The position numbers were made by a program, and so were the translations under genes. Under the pieces are notes generated by a model. It did not search any database and was not told the origin of the DNA. It saw only the letters and a list, made by a program, of their open reading frames with translations. Below are positions 38,201 through 43,279 of a DNA stretch of 64,000 nt, piece after piece. Location: the NCBI GenBank assembly GCA_015520265.1, contig WAQK01000030.1:134-64133 (forward strand), written 5' to 3'. This stretch comes from Pyrodictiaceae archaeon. GTDB lineage: Archaea; Thermoproteota; Thermoprotei_A; Sulfolobales; WAQK01. Numbering within the stretch: position 1 is the stretch's first letter; the number at the start of each line of letters is the position of its first letter.

Positions 38201-38373
38201 GTCTCGAGGGCTGTGCCGACCTCCTCCAGCGTGACCCTGGTCCACTCGATCCTATCGGTGGCAGGTCCGGGTCCAGCCGCTTGCGCGTGAGCTGTTGGTG
38301 CCAACAGCATTATGGGTGTTATTACCATTAGTGCAACTAGTATTATAGATGATAATATCTTGGTACGATTCAC
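35278..38373 (-). CDS. family-5 (OppA/DppA-type) extracellular substrate-binding protein with a Gln-rich repeat stalk and C-terminal membrane anchor
   Basis: 1031 aa with a GTG start preceded by GAGGTG. It has an N-terminal signal/TM (ILSSIILVALMVITPIMLLAPTAHA), a long SBP_bac_5-like body, and a C-terminal 189 aa made of a Q/L/S/T-rich heptad-like repeat region plus a TM (MLIAVILVLQLALLGLTFYF) and KRAA. Confidence 0.9.
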   Translation of the reverse strand: MNRTKILSSIILVALMVITPIMLLAPTAHAQAAGPGPATDRIEWTRVTLEEVGTALETGAIDVYVYGIRARTAQELAGKPGIKLYTAPAGLVDFGLNPAPVYTTTLEGTLDKRLAALQLGVPEAAITYLSHTEDGNTYVELGAHPDYGINPLAFRQIRFALNYLVDRKFIADHIYNGYAIPMYTFLAPADPTYTIIADIVAKYKFEYNPGLAEQMITSVLEAVGAYKIGDKWYYADQPIKLTFIIRIEDERHEIGLLLANELERIGFTIEKQEVTFAIAIRKVYLTNPADFQWHIYTEGWGKGALDRWDMGTINQFGAPWFGWLPGWADPEYWNYKNETIDELGQKIYFGKFNSFDEYVELYRQATELIIQESVRVWVATIQNIYPARAEVQGVTVDLGAGFRSLYFTREVYIPGSDTVKVGHRWAWTATSVWNPFGGFDDVYSVDPMRATYDYMMWFHPFNGEPIPFRADFEVETAGPTGTLEVPSDAVVWDAVNDQWVSVGSGVTATSKVTFDMSKYIGAKWHHGVEITWADVLASWVTSYEIAYDPEKSQLESSIAGPLAPYMDTIKGIRILPDQNKIEIYVDYWHFDPNYIASYAFFGMSNPAELQYVQFYLAFEAKTYALSETRAESEQIPWLSLIIPEHVADVKAAAQAVMTQFPANWFTIGTQSFMTETEWVERLNALINWIDTYGLAWISNGPFKLVYMNTDEQKLILEAFRDPTYPFSPGDWYFGEPVLTKIISVEAVTTVAPGDPIPINVTVTGLPPLHVKFILKDPATGNILVTGEAEEISEGLFRAVIPGEITAGLTEFSVTYELIVLAYSEQVAMPDEYSTLVTITFATTLARLQEQLNQMQQQTQEQLASLQEQFQEQMNQMQQQTQEQLASLQEQLQSQLQQVQEALGESVAQSFQQLSDSIAQLGETFTTAQQQLSNTIAQQFQQLGDTFTSSLQQVSNAIASVDNKVTTVSDTLDTVKTDVTTANSGIQSLGQNLDAFAKKVSDALNTLKMLIAVILVLQLALLGLTFYFKRAA
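35714..35820. repeat. tandem direct repeat, 66-bp period, inside the SBP stalk-coding region
   Basis: The 41-nt string aggcttgccagctgctcctgggtctgctgctgcatctggtt occurs identically at 35714-35754 and 35780-35820. It encodes the repeated peptide NQMQQQTQEQLASLQEQ. Confidence 0.9.
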
Positions 38374-38495
38374 TAATATCCACCTCTGTATCTTGAAAAG
38401 TACAGGGCACTATATTTAAGGTTTTTTCCAACGCTCATTCCATTCCTTTGATAAAGAAATTATTTACCTAAAAAACGGGCGTCATAGTGTATAGG

Positions 38496-38765
38496 TTACC
38501 CGATTAGTTTAACACTAAGTAGAATATTAATACAGGCCCATCGAATCACATTGTTTAACCACCGCCCAACCTCACCAAGTATTCTCTCCGTAGCACTTAT
38601 AAACACCAAAGCCATGCCGGCCAGGGAGAAGCCGAAGGCCAGCAGCATGAGCCAGATGTTCCCCCAGTCCATAGAGACGTAGAGGAGACCGAGGGCAATA
38701 GCCATGAGTACGAAGCCTACCGCAATGTTGCGCCTATACCCTGGAGACAACCAGTCGTTCCCCAC
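38496..38765 (-). CDS. small membrane protein
   Basis: 89-aa ORF with two clear hydrophobic helices (IAVGFVLMAIALGLLYV, IWLMLLAFGFSLAGMALVFI). GC is lower than in the flanking genes. Confidence 0.35.
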   Translation of the reverse strand: MGNDWLSPGYRRNIAVGFVLMAIALGLLYVSMDWGNIWLMLLAFGFSLAGMALVFISATERILGEVGRWLNNVIRWACINILLSVKLIG

Positions 38766-38812
38766 TCCCGATATAAGGCTCGACCAATAATAACCTGTAC
38801 GGAGGCCCAGGT

Positions 38813-39835
38813 GTGAGAGGGTCCAGGCTGGTGGAGATCAGGAGACCGCTACCCCTAACTGGACACGTAGCCTTCGGCATCCTGGACCGAGGCACCAACG
38901 TACTCCAGGTTAGGGTCACCACGCTCTGCCCCCTCAGCTGCATCTTCTGCAGCGTCGACGCCGGGCCCAGGACCCGGATGCGGGCAACAGAATACATTGT
39001 TACAGATATAGAGTGGCTGCAGGAGTGGGTTGCCCGCTTCGCCACCCTCAAGGGCGGGGGCGTCGAGGCCCTCCTGGACGGCGTCGGCGACCCCCTCTCA
39101 CACCCCCGGATAGCGGAGATCGTGGAGGCCTTGAAGAAGATCCCCGGCGTCTCCGCCGTGGCCTTGGAGACCCATGGCTACCACCTCACCAAAAACATGG
39201 TGGACAGGCTATGGGAGGCGGGGTTGGACAGGGTCAACCTCAGCATAGACTCGCTAGACCCGGAGCTGGCCAGAAGACTGGCGAGAACCCCTGGCTACGA
39301 TGTGGCGAGAGTGGTGGAGGCGGCCGAATACCTGGTCAAGGAGACGGAGATAGACCTGCACATAGCGCCGGTCTGGCTCCCCGGGGTTAACGACCGGGAG
39401 ATCGAGCGGATAGTTGAGTGGGGCACCAGGATAGGGGCTGGCAAGCGGTGGCCCCCCTTCGGGATCCAGAAATACGTGGCACACAAGTACGGGAGGAAAC
39501 CCCGAGGGGTCAGAGAGGTTTCCTGGGACGAGTTCTACAGGTGGCTTGACAGGCTGGGCGAGAAGCTGGGGGTGAATCTAAGGCCCCGCAGCGAAGATTT
39601 CGGCATAAGGCCGGCGCCGCGGGTGCCTCCGGCCTTCAACGTAGGCGAACACGTCAAGCTAGACATAGTGTTGCCGGGCTGGCTGAGGGGCGAGGTGATA
39701 GGTGTACCCCTTAGAGGGGCCAAGGTACTGGTAACAGTAGTCGGGGCTTCCAGAATCGGCCTAGAAGTTGGCGACAGGGTGCTAGTGAAAATAACATCTA
39801 ACAAGGACGGCATATATCTCGCAAAACCATACTAG
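38813..39835 (+). CDS. radical SAM protein (archaeal COG2100-like) with a C-terminal OB/TRAM-like domain
   Basis: CxxxCxxC cluster CPLSCIFCS, followed by GDPL and a TIM-like body. The C-terminal roughly 70 aa are beta-rich (VGEHVKLDIVLPGWLRGEVIGVPL...VLVKITS). Confidence 0.75.
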   Translation: MRGSRLVEIRRPLPLTGHVAFGILDRGTNVLQVRVTTLCPLSCIFCSVDAGPRTRMRATEYIVTDIEWLQEWVARFATLKGGGVEALLDGVGDPLSHPRIAEIVEALKKIPGVSAVALETHGYHLTKNMVDRLWEAGLDRVNLSIDSLDPELARRLARTPGYDVARVVEAAEYLVKETEIDLHIAPVWLPGVNDREIERIVEWGTRIGAGKRWPPFGIQKYVAHKYGRKPRGVREVSWDEFYRWLDRLGEKLGVNLRPRSEDFGIRPAPRVPPAFNVGEHVKLDIVLPGWLRGEVIGVPLRGAKVLVTVVGASRIGLEVGDRVLVKITSNKDGIYLAKPY

Positions 39836-40148
39836 GGGTTCAGGCTTCATCGTTGCTTCTGAAGGCTTTAACCTTTCCCGGGACTCGCTCATAACTACTA
39901 TACATCCGCCCTGCGCACTCCCGAAGAGCGTGCCTCTCCTGTACATACTGAGGGCTCCATCCAACGGCTCTCATCGCCTAACCCACCGAGTTTGTCCAAG
40001 CACCAAATACAGGAAACCCCATAAAACTTTACAGAGGATGAAAGATGACTAAAAAGTCCGGAAAGTATAGAAATTTCCAACAGTGGTGCAACCTATAATA
40101 GGAGGCCACACCCTATAGTATCGATAAAGTGTTGAGGCACGATCTGCT

Positions 40149-40538
40149 ATGAAACTCCCCGATGAGTGGGTGGAAAAGGCACAAACCTTTCTAAGGGACG
40201 CTCACCGCCACCTCGAAGAGGGCGACTACTGGTTAACATGCTTTGAGGCACAGCAAGCGGCTGAACTCTACTTGAAAGCTCTAATAGTAGCCGAAACCGG
40301 TGTCCACCCCTTCACCCATGATCTTGTTGAGCTCCTGGATACCCTAAACGATATTGGTTACAGTGTTCCCGAGCAACTCTATACGCTATGTGACGCTTTG
40401 ACGCCTCACTACACTCTGGCCAGGTACCCTGGCAGGAAACCGGTAACTTATACTAAGGGGCTGGGTGAGAGGTGCTTGAAGTATGCAGAAGAAGTCGTTA
40501 GGTGGGTTGAGGAAAAGGCTTCTGAAGCGCTTAGCTGA
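40149..40538 (+). CDS. HEPN domain protein
   Basis: 129 aa. The helical pattern FEAQQAAELYLKALI...HDLVELL...LARYPG is the HEPN pattern. It lies directly upstream of, and overlaps, an MNT gene. Confidence 0.8.
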   Translation: MKLPDEWVEKAQTFLRDAHRHLEEGDYWLTCFEAQQAAELYLKALIVAETGVHPFTHDLVELLDTLNDIGYSVPEQLYTLCDALTPHYTLARYPGRKPVTYTKGLGERCLKYAEEVVRWVEEKASEALS

Positions 40539-40989
40539 GAAGAAGAGGAAGAGGAAACAGCTACTAGAGGAGTATGTTAGGATTCTGAGCAACATGTACC
40601 CTAAGTCCCTTATACTTCTCTTCGGCTCACGTTCACGGGGCGAGGAGCTACCCTACAGCGACTATGATCTCGCAGTGGTCCTAGAGGAGATTAACGACTA
40701 TATAGAAGAAACCCATAGGATGCGTCTTCTAAAACCTCGGGGTATAAGTGTAGATCTATTAGCGTTGACGGTCAGGGACCTTGAGGATCCCCTAATCTTC
40801 AAGATGCTTCAAGACGCCATCCCCATCTACAACGGCCTAAACCTAGGCTGGCCTCCAGGGAGGCGTGCTCCTCCGAAAAAAAAAGTAGCCAGTAGGCCAG
40901 TCTACTGTACAATTAGCTTGCATCCACCCCTTCTCTTAGCCTTTCTCAAGAGCTTAGCTGCAAGCCTCCTGCCCGGAGTGCCCATATAG
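40483..40989 (+). CDS. minimal nucleotidyltransferase (MNT) domain protein, partner of the HEPN gene
   Basis: Pol-beta-type NTase motif LLFGSRSRGEELPYSDYDLAVV. The start is uncertain and the ORF overlaps HEPN by 56 nt. The C-terminal 35 aa after an A9 run look non-native and overlap the convergent gene. Confidence 0.7.
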   Translation: MQKKSLGGLRKRLLKRLAEKKRKRKQLLEEYVRILSNMYPKSLILLFGSRSRGEELPYSDYDLAVVLEEINDYIEETHRMRLLKPRGISVDLLALTVRDLEDPLIFKMLQDAIPIYNGLNLGWPPGRRAPPKKKVASRPVYCTISLHPPLLLAFLKSLAASLLPGVPI

Positions 40990-41327
40990 GCTTCCCTGCG
41001 GCCTGAGGCTGGAAGACCTACATGCGCTTTGACAGCAACTATCGATATGCAGGCACCGAGCCTTTTCACCTCCTCCAGTATCCTGCGCAGGTCATCTTCC
41101 AGTTCCTCCGGGGAGACCCCTGGAACCTCCAACACCACTTCCTCGGTTCCCCGCTTGGGATCAAGGCCGTAGAGCACCAGGGCGCTCCACTTGGAGACGA
41201 ACTCCTCCACAAGTCTGGTGAGGGTCCCGGTGACAGGGTTGGGGCTATACTCGCTCCACCCCTTCTCCCTCACCATGTCGCCGAACCGGTCCAGGTCCAT
41301 GATCACGATAGTGCCTTCGACCAGCAT
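40902..41327 (-). CDS. minimal palm-domain protein (GGDEF / GTP cyclohydrolase III / mCpol-like nucleotide cyclase fold)
   Basis: 141 aa. IVIMDLDRFGD corresponds to the DxDxF metal site, GTEEVVLEVPG sits where GGDEF would be, ISIVAVKA is the following beta-strand, and RRLAAKLLRKAKRRGGCKLIV resembles the ADxALYxAKxxGRNxV tail. The SPNP segment recalls archaeal GCH-III. Confidence 0.55.
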   Translation of the reverse strand: MLVEGTIVIMDLDRFGDMVREKGWSEYSPNPVTGTLTRLVEEFVSKWSALVLYGLDPKRGTEEVVLEVPGVSPEELEDDLRRILEEVKRLGACISIVAVKAHVGLPASGRREAYMGTPGRRLAAKLLRKAKRRGGCKLIVQ

Positions 41328-41370: not shown

Positions 41371-41427
41371 CGCGATGATGACGTGGGCAGCCAGGGAGTA
41401 GTGACAGGCCTAGTCTCACACTGAGCG
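41371..41427 (+). ncRNA. weak candidate C/D-box sRNA
   Basis: C-box-like AUGAUGA at 41375-41381 and D-box CUGA at 41421-41424. The 57-nt span is typical of archaeal C/D sRNAs. The internal D'/C' boxes are degenerate and the terminal stem is poor. Confidence 0.25.
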
Positions 41428-41717
41428 TTTCTCAGCCCATGTTCACGTGGATGCCTTAGGCATTATGCTAGTCTACCCAATCTGTCTTCGGGAAAGTTTC
41501 CATAATGCAATGCCATGAAAAATACTCTTACCATGGACGGCCTAGAGTTCCTTGGATAGAGATGGTGGATTAATAAAGCTCTTAGTTAGGAGTATGGGAG
41601 CCTGTGAAAGGTGCGGTGCTTCAGGAAGACGAGATGGAAACCCTGGTTACCGTTGGGCCAGGGCACCCTGCCTCCTGTAGCACCATGCCTATCTAGACTA
41701 ATTTATGGAGCCAAAAC

Positions 41718-42278
41718 CTAGTACTCCTCCCTTATGCAGCCTAGCTCTTTTAACTTGTCGTAGATCCTGTAGACAGCTTCTTCGACCTCCTCCTCCCTCT
41801 TGGCGCCCGTGATCACCATTTTGCCGCTACTGAAGACGAGAAGCACGACCCTGGGCTGGGACATCCTGTGGATAAGGCCGGGGAACTGCTCGGGTTCATA
41901 CATGTTGTCCTCGAGGAGGAAGGCGGCCTTCTCTAGGTTCACCTCCACGTTGAGATTGGCCGAAGCGACTATGTTCTGTATCTGGATCTTGGGCCTTCCC
42001 GTTATGATTATGTTGTGCCTTCGGAGGGTCCTGATGATCTTCTTGACCGCCTTGATGAGCTCCTCTGTACTCTTGGCACCTGTGACAACCATTTTACCAG
42101 ACTTGAATATCAGCGCGGTGACCTTGGGGTTCTCAAGCCTCATGATGAGGCCGGGGAACTGGTCGGGGTTGTACTCCACGTACTCGACGCTCCTCTCAAT
42201 GGCGTTAAGGTCAAGCGTCTGGTCAAGGGTAACCGTGGCTACAATGTTCTCTATGCGGTAAACGGGTTTAGATGCCAT
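41718..42278 (-). CDS. tbp: TATA-box binding protein
   Basis: 186 aa from the ATG at 42278 ([16 protein letters not shown]...). It has two TBP repeats with FPGLIMRL / FPGLIHRM and [11 protein letters not shown] / [11 protein letters not shown]. The ORF-track extension to 42575 is Gly/Pro/Arg-rich and is rejected. Confidence 0.95.
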
Positions 42279-42306
42279 AATGTTATCTCCTCCGCTCATA
42301 CAAGGC

Positions 42307-42314
42307 TTTATAAA
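42307..42314 (-). promoter_or_regulatory. TATA box TTTATAAA upstream of tbp
   Basis: It lies 29-36 nt upstream of the tbp ATG. That spacing fits a near-leaderless crenarchaeal transcript. Confidence 0.5.
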
Positions 42315-42349
42315 CCTAGTATAAAAGGACTTTGCAGCACGCCTAGACG

Positions 42350-43105
42350 CTAAGCCAGCATGTCGCCGAGGAGGCCCAGCTCGGGGAACTCGTAGAGGCC
42401 AACCTCCTCGTCCACGATTATGGGTCTGGCCCGCTCCACCACCCCCATCTCCTTTACTATCGGGGACAGGTATTTGGAGGGATCCAGGCCCACGGGGTTC
42501 CCCGACTGGTAGGCCCCCGCGGCTGGCAGCACAAGGGCCTCCGCCCCGTTCCTGAGGGGCACATGGAGGAAGCAAGGGAACCTGGCAACGACACCTATAG
42601 AGTCCCTCAGGGCTATGCTGGGATGCTCATGCCCCATGATCACAAGGTCCCCCTCACGCATCTCGACCCCCACGTGGCCGTGTATTATCAGTACGTCGCC
42701 CAGGCGGAGGCTGGGCACTATCTCGACGCCATACGCCTCGGCCACGGCGGCCAGGTAGTTGTCATGGTTCCCCCTAACCACCACTACCTCCTCCACCCTC
42801 TCCTTAAGGAAGGAGAACAGGCCGCCAACCTCTGTCCTCTCCTGCCAGGTGAGCCTGGAGAACACGTGTTTAACGTCGCCCGCGATCACTACTCTACTAG
42901 CCCTGGTCTTCTCCAGCGCTTCTCTCAGCAGCCCGACCGCCTTCTCGTACTGGACTCTGGGGAGGTACACGCCCTTCGACGCCATGTCGTCCTCGAAGCC
43001 CAAGTGGAGATCCGCGAGGACCAGTGTACCCGTACCTCTGAGAAGCACAACCGGGAGCCCGGGCACCAGTTCTACTCCAGGCCTTATCTCCACGACCAGT
43101 CCCAC
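42350..43105 (-). CDS. calcineurin-like metallophosphoesterase (archaeal SbcD/ICC-like, TIGR00024-type)
   Basis: Metallophosphatase motifs [29 protein letters not shown] and MGHEHP, in canonical order. Confidence 0.75.
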
Positions 43106-43160: not shown

Positions 43161-43279
43161 TGGCGGGCCCGCCGGGATTTGAACCCGGGACCTACGGGTT
43201 TCTCCCCGCACCCTCCTGGTTAAGAGCCTCGGCCAGCAGCCAGGCTGTCCGCCGCTCTACCAGGCTGAGCTACGGGCCC
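43161..43279 (-). tRNA. tRNA-Lys (anticodon CUU) with encoded CCA and two putative 21-nt introns
   Basis: The reverse complement gives GGGCCCGUAGCUCAGCCUGGUAGAGCG... ...GGUCCCGGGUUCAAAUCCCGGCGGGCCCGCCA. It has a 7-bp acceptor, a GCUC/GAGC D-stem and a CCGGG/CCCGG T-stem. Removing 43228-43248 and 43200-43220 yields the anticodon arm GCGGG-CUCUUAA-CCCGU. Confidence 0.8.

Follow-up and report, generated by a model that had tools for sequence, protein, structure and literature searches.

The locus described here raises the question of whether three small adjacent genes act together or are neighbours only by position. They occupy positions 40149-41327 of a 64,000-nucleotide stretch of a Pyrodictiaceae archaeon genome (contig WAQK01000030.1; the whole stretch is referred to below as the window), and all three are present in the list of its open reading frames (ORFs). 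The first two, on the plus strand, encode a 129-residue HEPN protein (40149..40538) and a 168-residue minimal nucleotidyltransferase (MNT; ORF 40483..40989). The third, on the minus strand and convergent with them, encodes a 141-residue stand-alone protein with a predicted GGDEF-like palm domain and the motifs DLDxF, PN, RGTEE and AKRRGG (40902..41327). The initial annotation of the window proposed that this palm protein could signal to the adjacent HEPN/MNT pair, the trio forming a small signalling or defence module. We consider the best explanation, with a probability of roughly 0.8, to be that the genes are unrelated neighbours: the palm gene would be a vertically inherited core gene of an uncharacterised archaeal minimal-palm family, beside which a HEPN-MNT cassette has been inserted.

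The closest relative of the locus, L004, encodes a palm protein with 87% amino acid identity and aligns to the window at 42273-41720 (tbp, the gene for TATA-binding protein), 41429-40909 (the palm gene and ~100 bp upstream of it) and 39834-38841 (a radical-SAM gene). The palm and radical-SAM stop codons are separated by 59 bp in L004 versus 1074 bp in the window, and the extra stretch of ~1,066 bp (39836-40901) consists exactly of a 313-bp non-coding gap, the HEPN gene and the MNT gene. The radical-SAM gene (38813..39835, plus strand; MoaA-like core, Pfam Radical_SAM 2e-27) is convergent with the palm gene and belongs to the conserved flank, outside the insertion; its product has MoaA-like NCBIfam matches, all sub-threshold. 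The HEPN-MNT pair is a separate insertion of about 1 kb beside the palm gene in this genome only, and for that reason the three genes do not constitute one module. A self-contained cassette would have entered, in this lineage only, the short gap in which the palm and radical-SAM genes converge on their terminators. At the edges of the insertion, searches for target-site duplications and inverted repeats returned just short repeats at chance level. The cassette leader (39836..40148, GC content 0.482), the presumed site of the HEPN-MNT promoter, matches no Rfam family at E ≤ 1, and blastn and blastx against the window and the fetched loci gave nothing for it.

Base composition follows the same boundaries. 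The GC content of 39836-40880 is 0.497, within the lowest 0.6% of 1045-bp windows, versus 0.58 for the palm gene, which lies at the 28th percentile around a window mean of 0.60. At third codon positions the palm gene has a GC content of 0.70, the HEPN and MNT genes 0.54-0.60 and the flanking genes 0.76-0.79. The three-gene low-GC islet of the initial annotation therefore holds for 39836-40880 but does not extend to the palm gene, which lies outside it because its GC content is ordinary and the low GC is confined to the cassette. The two non-coding stretches that flank the trio are indeed unusually long: at 313 bp and 390 bp they rank sixth and fourth among the 41 gaps of the window, whose median is 50 bp. 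As a separate observation, the GC minimum of this neighbourhood lies upstream of the radical-SAM gene (38250-38812, GC 0.40-0.45), below that of the HEPN-MNT stretch, and contains a 439-bp gap without an ORF of at least 90 residues (38374-38812).

Across 150 palm-family loci, drawn from 80 GTDB species, 55 metagenome contigs and targeted look-ups, HEPN and MNT genes each stand beside the palm gene once, in this window alone. Four further apparent MNT matches among these loci were rejected as antisense translations of the conserved palm gene. Conversely, the HEPN-MNT pair, with a HEPN protein of 129 residues and the same 56-nt overlap, recurs on four contigs found via two MNT homologues (L095-L098), all of them lacking the palm gene; there it lies, for example, beside an epimerase and heme-synthesis genes or beside a PALP enzyme. 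On two of these contigs (L097 and L098) a 136-residue gene converges on MNT and was considered as a second trio, but it encodes a winged helix-turn-helix/transmembrane-like protein and not a palm.

For a module in which the palm product signals to HEPN/MNT one can cite the physical adjacency of the three genes, a fold that the palm protein shares with signal-producing palms, the Panoptes mCpol OptS included, and weak matches of MNT to the PADLOC candidate system PDC-S09. Yet the cassette is missing at the same site in L004, its base composition is unlike that of the palm gene, and the palm gene is convergent with HEPN-MNT and not co-transcribed with it. The HEPN protein is a bare domain, the palm protein has no match in PADLOC, and no relative was found in 2.9 million viral contigs. 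Judged by the yardstick of the initial annotation itself, whether homologues of the palm protein co-occur with HEPN/MNT or other conflict genes, the proposed module fails, and we regard it as extremely unlikely.

The two cassette proteins are what they were first taken to be. The HEPN protein matches PF05168 at 1.1e-31, with no other Pfam domain (CARF, SAVED or others) detected, and MNT matches NTP_transf_2 (PF01909) at 5.9e-9 and Polbeta at 1e-7, with G48, S49, D60 and D62 (GS...DxD) invariant among its homologues. The further label of a type VII toxin-antitoxin system fits in part. As in HepT-MntA, the HEPN and minimal nucleotidyltransferase genes overlap and MNT retains the GS...DxD core; and as with HEPN-MNT pairs generally, the pair recurs in differing genomic contexts with deviant GC. 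However, the HEPN protein belongs to PF05168 and not to the DUF86/HepT type, and MNT scores 34 bits against the NCBIfam MntA model, below the cutoff of 60. The sole R-x4-H of the HEPN protein, located by eye, belongs to the N-terminal helix (residues 16-21), and there is no Rx4-6H in the C-terminal half, where the motif lies in HepT. The gene order, HEPN then MNT, is a further difference. The cassette is an element of an already known kind and, by analogy, may be a toxin-antitoxin-like selfish or defence cassette in which MNT would modify HEPN. In one 145-residue MNT homologue (P0197), the HEPN C-terminal peptide ARYPGRKPVSY... is fused in frame at the N-terminus, which suggests frameshifting or mis-calling inside the conserved HEPN/MNT overlap.

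The MNT ORF overlaps the 3' end of the palm gene by 88 nt, as initially noted, but the overlapping tail is not a conserved part of the protein. MNT homologues are 106-145 residues long and end soon after a YNGLNL segment. The conserved portion runs from 40483 to about 40860, and residues ~127-168 are a read-through tail that is not conserved and is encoded in antisense to the 3' end of the palm gene; the start at 40483 is taken as genuine because the MNT N-terminus is conserved. A run of nine adenines (A9; T9 on the minus strand), read from the sequence at 40876..40884, sets the frame that carries MNT into the palm antisense. A 99% identical MNT copy (P0192) is 136 residues long and ends in APPKKSSQ, a C-terminus that fits an A-run length other than A9. 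In the frame that yields this ending, MNT has its stop codon at 40893-40895, seven bases short of that of the palm gene (40902-40904). The MNT/palm overlap thus appears to be a frame artefact of the A9 run, whose length reflects either an assembly error or natural variation. On the minus strand the T9 tract lies 17 nt after the palm stop codon and is likely to be an archaeal terminator.

What, then, is the palm gene beside which the cassette was inserted? Its product has 110 homologues at E ≤ 0.01, in Pyrodictiaceae, Desulfurococcales, Aeropyrum, Methanopyrus and Nezhaarchaeales, and relatives in 112 GTDB species, Acidilobaceae and Ignicoccus included, with distant members in Heimdallarchaeota, Hodarchaeales and Methanomethylicota. 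When 1.84 billion protein representatives were searched exhaustively by HMM, the family amounted to only 42 clusters at 50% identity, nearly all of them stand-alone proteins of 130-175 residues; one is a Toprim-palm fusion. D11, D13, P29, N30, G54, R59, G60, T61, E62, E63 and K131 are invariant, and the core formed by DLDxF, N, T, GTEE and AK is also invariant in the distant members, together with an SxG strand motif. Between the window and L004 the palm gene has a dN/dS of 0.053, a value that indicates strong purifying selection.

An AlphaFold model of the palm protein (pLDDT 96.9, pTM 0.90) has the topology β1-α-α1-β2-β3-α2-β4-α-α3-β5 and places GTEE in the β2-β3 hairpin, between model strands 50-53 and 63-69. 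Foldseek searches with this model against the PDB returned nucleotide-cyclase palms throughout the matches listed, with probability 1.00 to cyclase, GGDEF, GTP cyclohydrolase III (GCH III), mCpol and Cas10 structures. The adenylyl cyclases Ma1120 (E 3.4e-5, TMq 0.66, probability 1.00) and Rv1900c are among the top matches, followed by GGDEF domains (WspR, PleD and others, from 1.4e-4 for WspR to weaker values), GCH III (2qv6; E 1e-3, TMq 0.55), the Panoptes mCpol OptS (9pd0; 2.5e-3, TMq 0.50) and Cas10 (2.7e-3). The profile of the palm family (A1) matches the GGDEF structure 3ign in the PDB at E 1.7e-4, and that of the distant members (A6) matches DosC at E 3.9e-5 and some 20 further GGDEF chains from strand 1 to the C-terminus; GGDEF is the sole enzyme family that the palm profiles match there. 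The palm-domain call of the initial annotation is borne out by the model, by the Foldseek matches and by these profiles, which together show that the protein has a nucleotide-cyclase, GGDEF-like fold.

Formally, the palm protein falls outside the GGDEF, mCpol and GCH III families. It has no Pfam match at E ≤ 1 and reaches no NCBIfam threshold, with a faint SiaD diguanylate-cyclase match at E 0.13. Two of 46 family members match PF00990 below threshold (best 0.0038), and one distant member scores 23.7 bits versus a cutoff of 23.8. Neither PF18182 (confirmed to be the mCpol model) nor PF05165 (GCH_III) is matched by the window protein at E ≤ 1, and neither is among the 25 families listed of the 31 matched by the 46 members. 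The class III adenylyl and guanylyl cyclases (Ma1120, Rv1900c) are the best structural matches of the model, but they show no sequence-profile similarity to the family in the listed Pfam or PDB profile searches, and the palm motifs align with those of GGDEF domains. The suggested likeness to mCpol holds for the fold and for the small, stand-alone, sensorless architecture of similar size (OptS 2.5e-3); it does not extend to the profile, to a conserved effector partner (CARF, HEPN or 2TM), which the palm family lacks, or to genomic setting, as the palm gene is found in core-genome contexts and not in defence islands.

The initial annotation had also seen in an SPNP segment a likeness to GCH III, which opens the GTP ring, and an enzyme of this kind could serve riboflavin or F420 biosynthesis. 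GCH III is archaeal, has the palm fold (MJ0145, 2qv6), and carries a TPNP segment ([ST]PNP-like) after its first strand, comparable to the invariant PN of the palm family; a short TGTLT match also falls in the initial part of the second domain of GCH III. We checked the N-terminal sequence of MJ0145 against 2qv6, aligned it with its homologues and compared the alignment with the palm profile, and hhalign gave a probability of 0.45% (E 0.13), no statistical support for the likeness. GCH III moreover consists of two tandem domains, ~250 residues in all, with TRFDN and GGDNF, whereas the palm protein is a single domain of ~140 residues with RGTEE; the PDB profile matches are to GGDEF only, and the conserved neighbours of the palm gene are not riboflavin genes. 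We regard a GCH III-like activity as very unlikely.

Comparison with the GGDEF diguanylate cyclases (PF00990; PleD, WspR, DosC) shows both what the palm family has kept and where it departs. The β-α-β-β-α-β palm fold is shared, and the motif correspondences first proposed by eye hold in the GGDEF alignments: DLDxF with DxDxFK, GTEE with GGEEF, the (S)I(G)VA strand with TxSxGxA, and AKRRGG(N) with AKxxGRN. In these alignments D11, D13, E62, E63 and K131 fall on the metal-binding Asp/Glu and transition-state Lys positions of GGDEF domains. The GG[DE]EF signature itself gives way to G60-T61-E62-E63, which is invariant, and then V or A, with Thr in place of the second Gly and Val or Ala in place of the Phe. 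The invariant Asn30 aligns to the Asp of the GGDEF 'GHxxGD' segment, the guanine-binding D344 of PleD, in which the guanine-binding Asn is N335. At the other substrate positions the N335 equivalent is non-conserved, the FK lysine is replaced by Gly, Glu or Ser at position 16, and the GRN arginine by Gly135. The family further differs in an insertion of ~10-14 residues with W..Y.PN, in the lack of an RxxD I-site and of a sensor domain, in its restriction to archaea, and in scoring below the Pfam gathering threshold.

These substitutions bear on whether the palm protein is an enzyme at all. It could be catalytically inactive and just bind a nucleotide or a partner, like a degenerate GGDEF domain, as GTEE in place of GG[DE]EF, the missing FK lysine and GRN arginine, and the lack of a sensor domain might suggest. 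A degenerate domain is expected not to retain the whole acidic set, however, and here members from Thermoproteota, Methanopyrus and Asgard archaea keep both β1 aspartates, both hairpin glutamates and the lysine without exception; selection on the gene is strongly purifying. We judge inactivity to be improbable. Because the β1 aspartates, the acidic pair of the GTEE hairpin and the C-terminal lysine, which in GGDEF enzymes hold metal and NTP, are kept, the most likely function would be that of a nucleotidyl transferase or cyclase that uses nucleoside triphosphates (NTPs), and by analogy it would work as a homodimer. Its base specificity is probably other than GTP, since the guanine-binding Asp is replaced by an invariant Asn and there is no FK lysine. 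On the strength of the conserved residues, the palm protein is rather likely to be an active, dimeric, NTP-using transferase or cyclase of non-guanine or altered specificity.

The genes around the palm gene differ from lineage to lineage. One recurrent neighbour is tbp, found within 1.5 kb in 54 of the 150 loci: upstream on the same strand in 31, divergent in 13, convergent in eight and downstream on the same strand in two. A relative of the TIGR00024 metallophosphoesterase, which usually accompanies tbp, is present in 42 loci (within 1 kb in 34), and in four it is the immediate, divergently oriented neighbour of the palm gene. Radical-SAM relatives occur in 35 (within 1 kb in 19), class I lysyl-tRNA synthetase in 16, the RsmB/F 5-methylcytosine (m5C) methyltransferase in 22 and TRAM in 17. 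In 15 loci, Nezhaarchaeales among them, RsmB/F lies divergently upstream and TRAM convergently downstream. Methanopyrus has a co-directional cluster of a phosphoglycerate dehydrogenase (PGDH), the palm protein and RsmB/F, with genes that overlap or lie a few base pairs apart; of the two Methanopyrus loci, one has RsmB/F 6 bp downstream of the palm gene, and in the second RsmB/F overlaps the palm gene's end. Examples of loci with RsmB/F are L084 (1049-4404), L087 (4439-7811) and L085 (4572-6681).

Glutamate dehydrogenase and a 2-hydroxyacid dehydrogenase are encoded near the palm gene in Pyrodictiaceae. The 2-hydroxyacid/phosphoglycerate dehydrogenase of these loci (L003, L018, L024 and others) is 47-50% identical to that of Methanopyrus (L084/L087), and whereas in Methanopyrus its gene immediately precedes the palm gene, in Pyrodictiaceae the two are ~1.5 kb apart; this could be a block transferred between hyperthermophiles.

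A PHP/PHP_C phosphoesterase of ~200 residues is encoded in 18 of the 150 loci, and in 14 of the 18 its gene directly follows the palm gene in the same orientation. In Methanomethylicota and Asgard-type contigs the two genes often overlap. Its NCBIfam matches are of the CehA/McbA type and, more weakly, to 3',5'-bisphosphate nucleotidase and RNase RNM (RNase AM-like). The palm and PHP genes overlap by 4 bp in L081 (6397-9034), where arcTGT in turn overlaps the palm start; in L088 (4782-6237) the Toprim-palm fusion is followed by a PHP gene, and L091 (5001-6124) is a further example of palm then PHP. In four of the 18 loci there is a RelA/SpoT-type HD hydrolase, in L093 (3529-6076) together with a Polβ-like nucleotidyltransferase. 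The conserved neighbours have generic, domain-level matches only in PADLOC. The palm neighbourhoods carry no conflict-system signature, which points to a housekeeping role. Elsewhere in the 64-kb window there is no further homologue of HEPN, MNT, PHP, RsmB/F, TRAM or Toprim.

In the window the palm gene is preceded on the same strand by tbp (41718..42275, minus strand; Pfam TBP 3.7e-66) and, upstream of tbp, by a gene for an SbcD-related, PdeM-like archaeal metallophosphoesterase (42350..43105, minus strand; TIGR00024, 150 bits versus a cutoff of 115). The tbp ORF as listed mechanically (41718-42575, minus strand, 285 residues) is over-extended at its 5' end; homology starts at about 42275, and the first ~100 residues of the extended product are Gly/Pro/Arg-rich and overlap the metallophosphoesterase gene. 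Just upstream of the latter, Rfam identifies a 116-nt tRNA (43164-43279, minus strand; 50.9 bits), presumably with an intron, at which ARAGORN finds none.

Part of the long gap between tbp and the palm gene is accounted for by a candidate C/D-box small RNA (sRNA) inside it (41371..41428, plus strand). It has a C box (ATGATGA, 41375-41381), a D' box (GGGA), a C'-like box (AGTGACA) and a D box (CTGA, 41421-41424), with a 12-nt guide after the C box, CGTGGGCAGCCA, and a second guide after the C'-like box. The boxes and an 11-nt guide, GTGGGCAGCCA, are invariant in the window and six other loci (L004, L005, L006, L007, L012 and L017), the flanks having diverged, and the 14-mer is unique in the window. 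This candidate thus combines C, D', C' and D boxes, guides of ~12 nt and guide conservation; the Rfam sR17 model matches it with 18.2 bits (E 0.35), below its gathering score of 36 bits. The remaining ~290 bp of the gap (41430-41717) have no homologue by blastn or blastx in the window or the fetched loci, where the sole match of the two long gaps was to the edge of the palm gene itself.

The neighbours hint, by association only, at a pairing of a synthase with a phosphoesterase or at a link to RNA maturation. In the latter case the palm protein would attach nucleotides to RNA, much as the Thg1 palm does, during tRNA or rRNA maturation, and make no free messenger. The recurrent RNA-related neighbours (RsmB/F, TRAM, arcTGT, class I lysyl-tRNA synthetase and the RNase AM/pAp-phosphatase-like PHP protein) favour such a role, as do the Toprim fusion and the C/D-box sRNA that adjoins the palm gene here. 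But Thg1 is absent from the listed Pfam results and from the PDB profile matches to E 10, nearly all members are bare palms with no added RNA-binding domain, and the contexts are lineage-specific and may reflect chance synteny with abundant housekeeping genes. We consider RNA transfer of this kind unlikely.

In the former case a phosphoesterase, the operonic PHP protein elsewhere and the metallophosphoesterase here, would hydrolyse the product of the palm protein, the two forming a synthase/hydrolase pair. A free nucleotide messenger, formed by the palm protein and broken down by PHP or the metallophosphoesterase, is a tentative proposal, and on present evidence the less probable outcome.

Several points weigh against parts of the interpretation given here, of a conserved and catalytically competent palm protein with an unrelated cassette beside it. 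The palm protein lies below every Pfam and NCBIfam threshold. Its metal-site geometry is deduced from alignments, and its chemistry could differ or be lost because Thr replaces the second Gly of the motif and Gly the GRN arginine. The partnership with PHP or the metallophosphoesterase is guilt by association, and tbp may adjoin the palm gene through inherited synteny, with no bearing on function. The 150 loci do not represent phylogenetically independent events, and some of the metagenome loci duplicate one another. Finally, the A run may owe its length to genuine variation and not to faulty assembly.

According to reviews, cyclic di-GMP (c-di-GMP) is undetected in archaea, diguanylate cyclases and GGDEF domains are almost exclusively bacterial, and Crenarchaeota lack diadenylate cyclases (PMC10249747, PMC8646023, PMC5847659). 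Our text searches of the literature found no paper describing the palm family, some members of which are labelled automatically as 'GGDEF domain-containing protein' in databases. The palm protein adds a new variant to the GGDEF/cyclase palm superfamily: a GGDEF-derived family that, judged by its conserved residues, looks catalytically intact, is missed by the Pfam GGDEF model and is present in at least 112 archaeal species. Recognising the adjacency of palm and HEPN-MNT genes here as an insertion accident also averts a misreading: since such cassettes can insert next to genes with which they have nothing to do, a neighbourhood seen in a single genome should not be taken as a system.

The palm protein is instead a concrete candidate with which to test whether archaea form a novel nucleotide product. 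The GTEE mini-palm family of Thermoproteota, Methanopyrus and Asgard archaea might be an archaea-specific nucleotide synthase that, with a dedicated phosphoesterase, constitutes an unrecognised housekeeping messenger circuit or a system for nucleotidyl transfer to RNA ends, an idea that we hold to be speculative and rather doubtful. In Asgard archaea and Methanomethylicota the operonic PHP protein would act as the phosphoesterase of such a circuit; in Desulfurococcales that part would possibly fall to the tbp-adjacent metallophosphoesterase. If true, this would place a messenger circuit in lineages that reviews regard as lacking GGDEF/c-di-GMP signalling.

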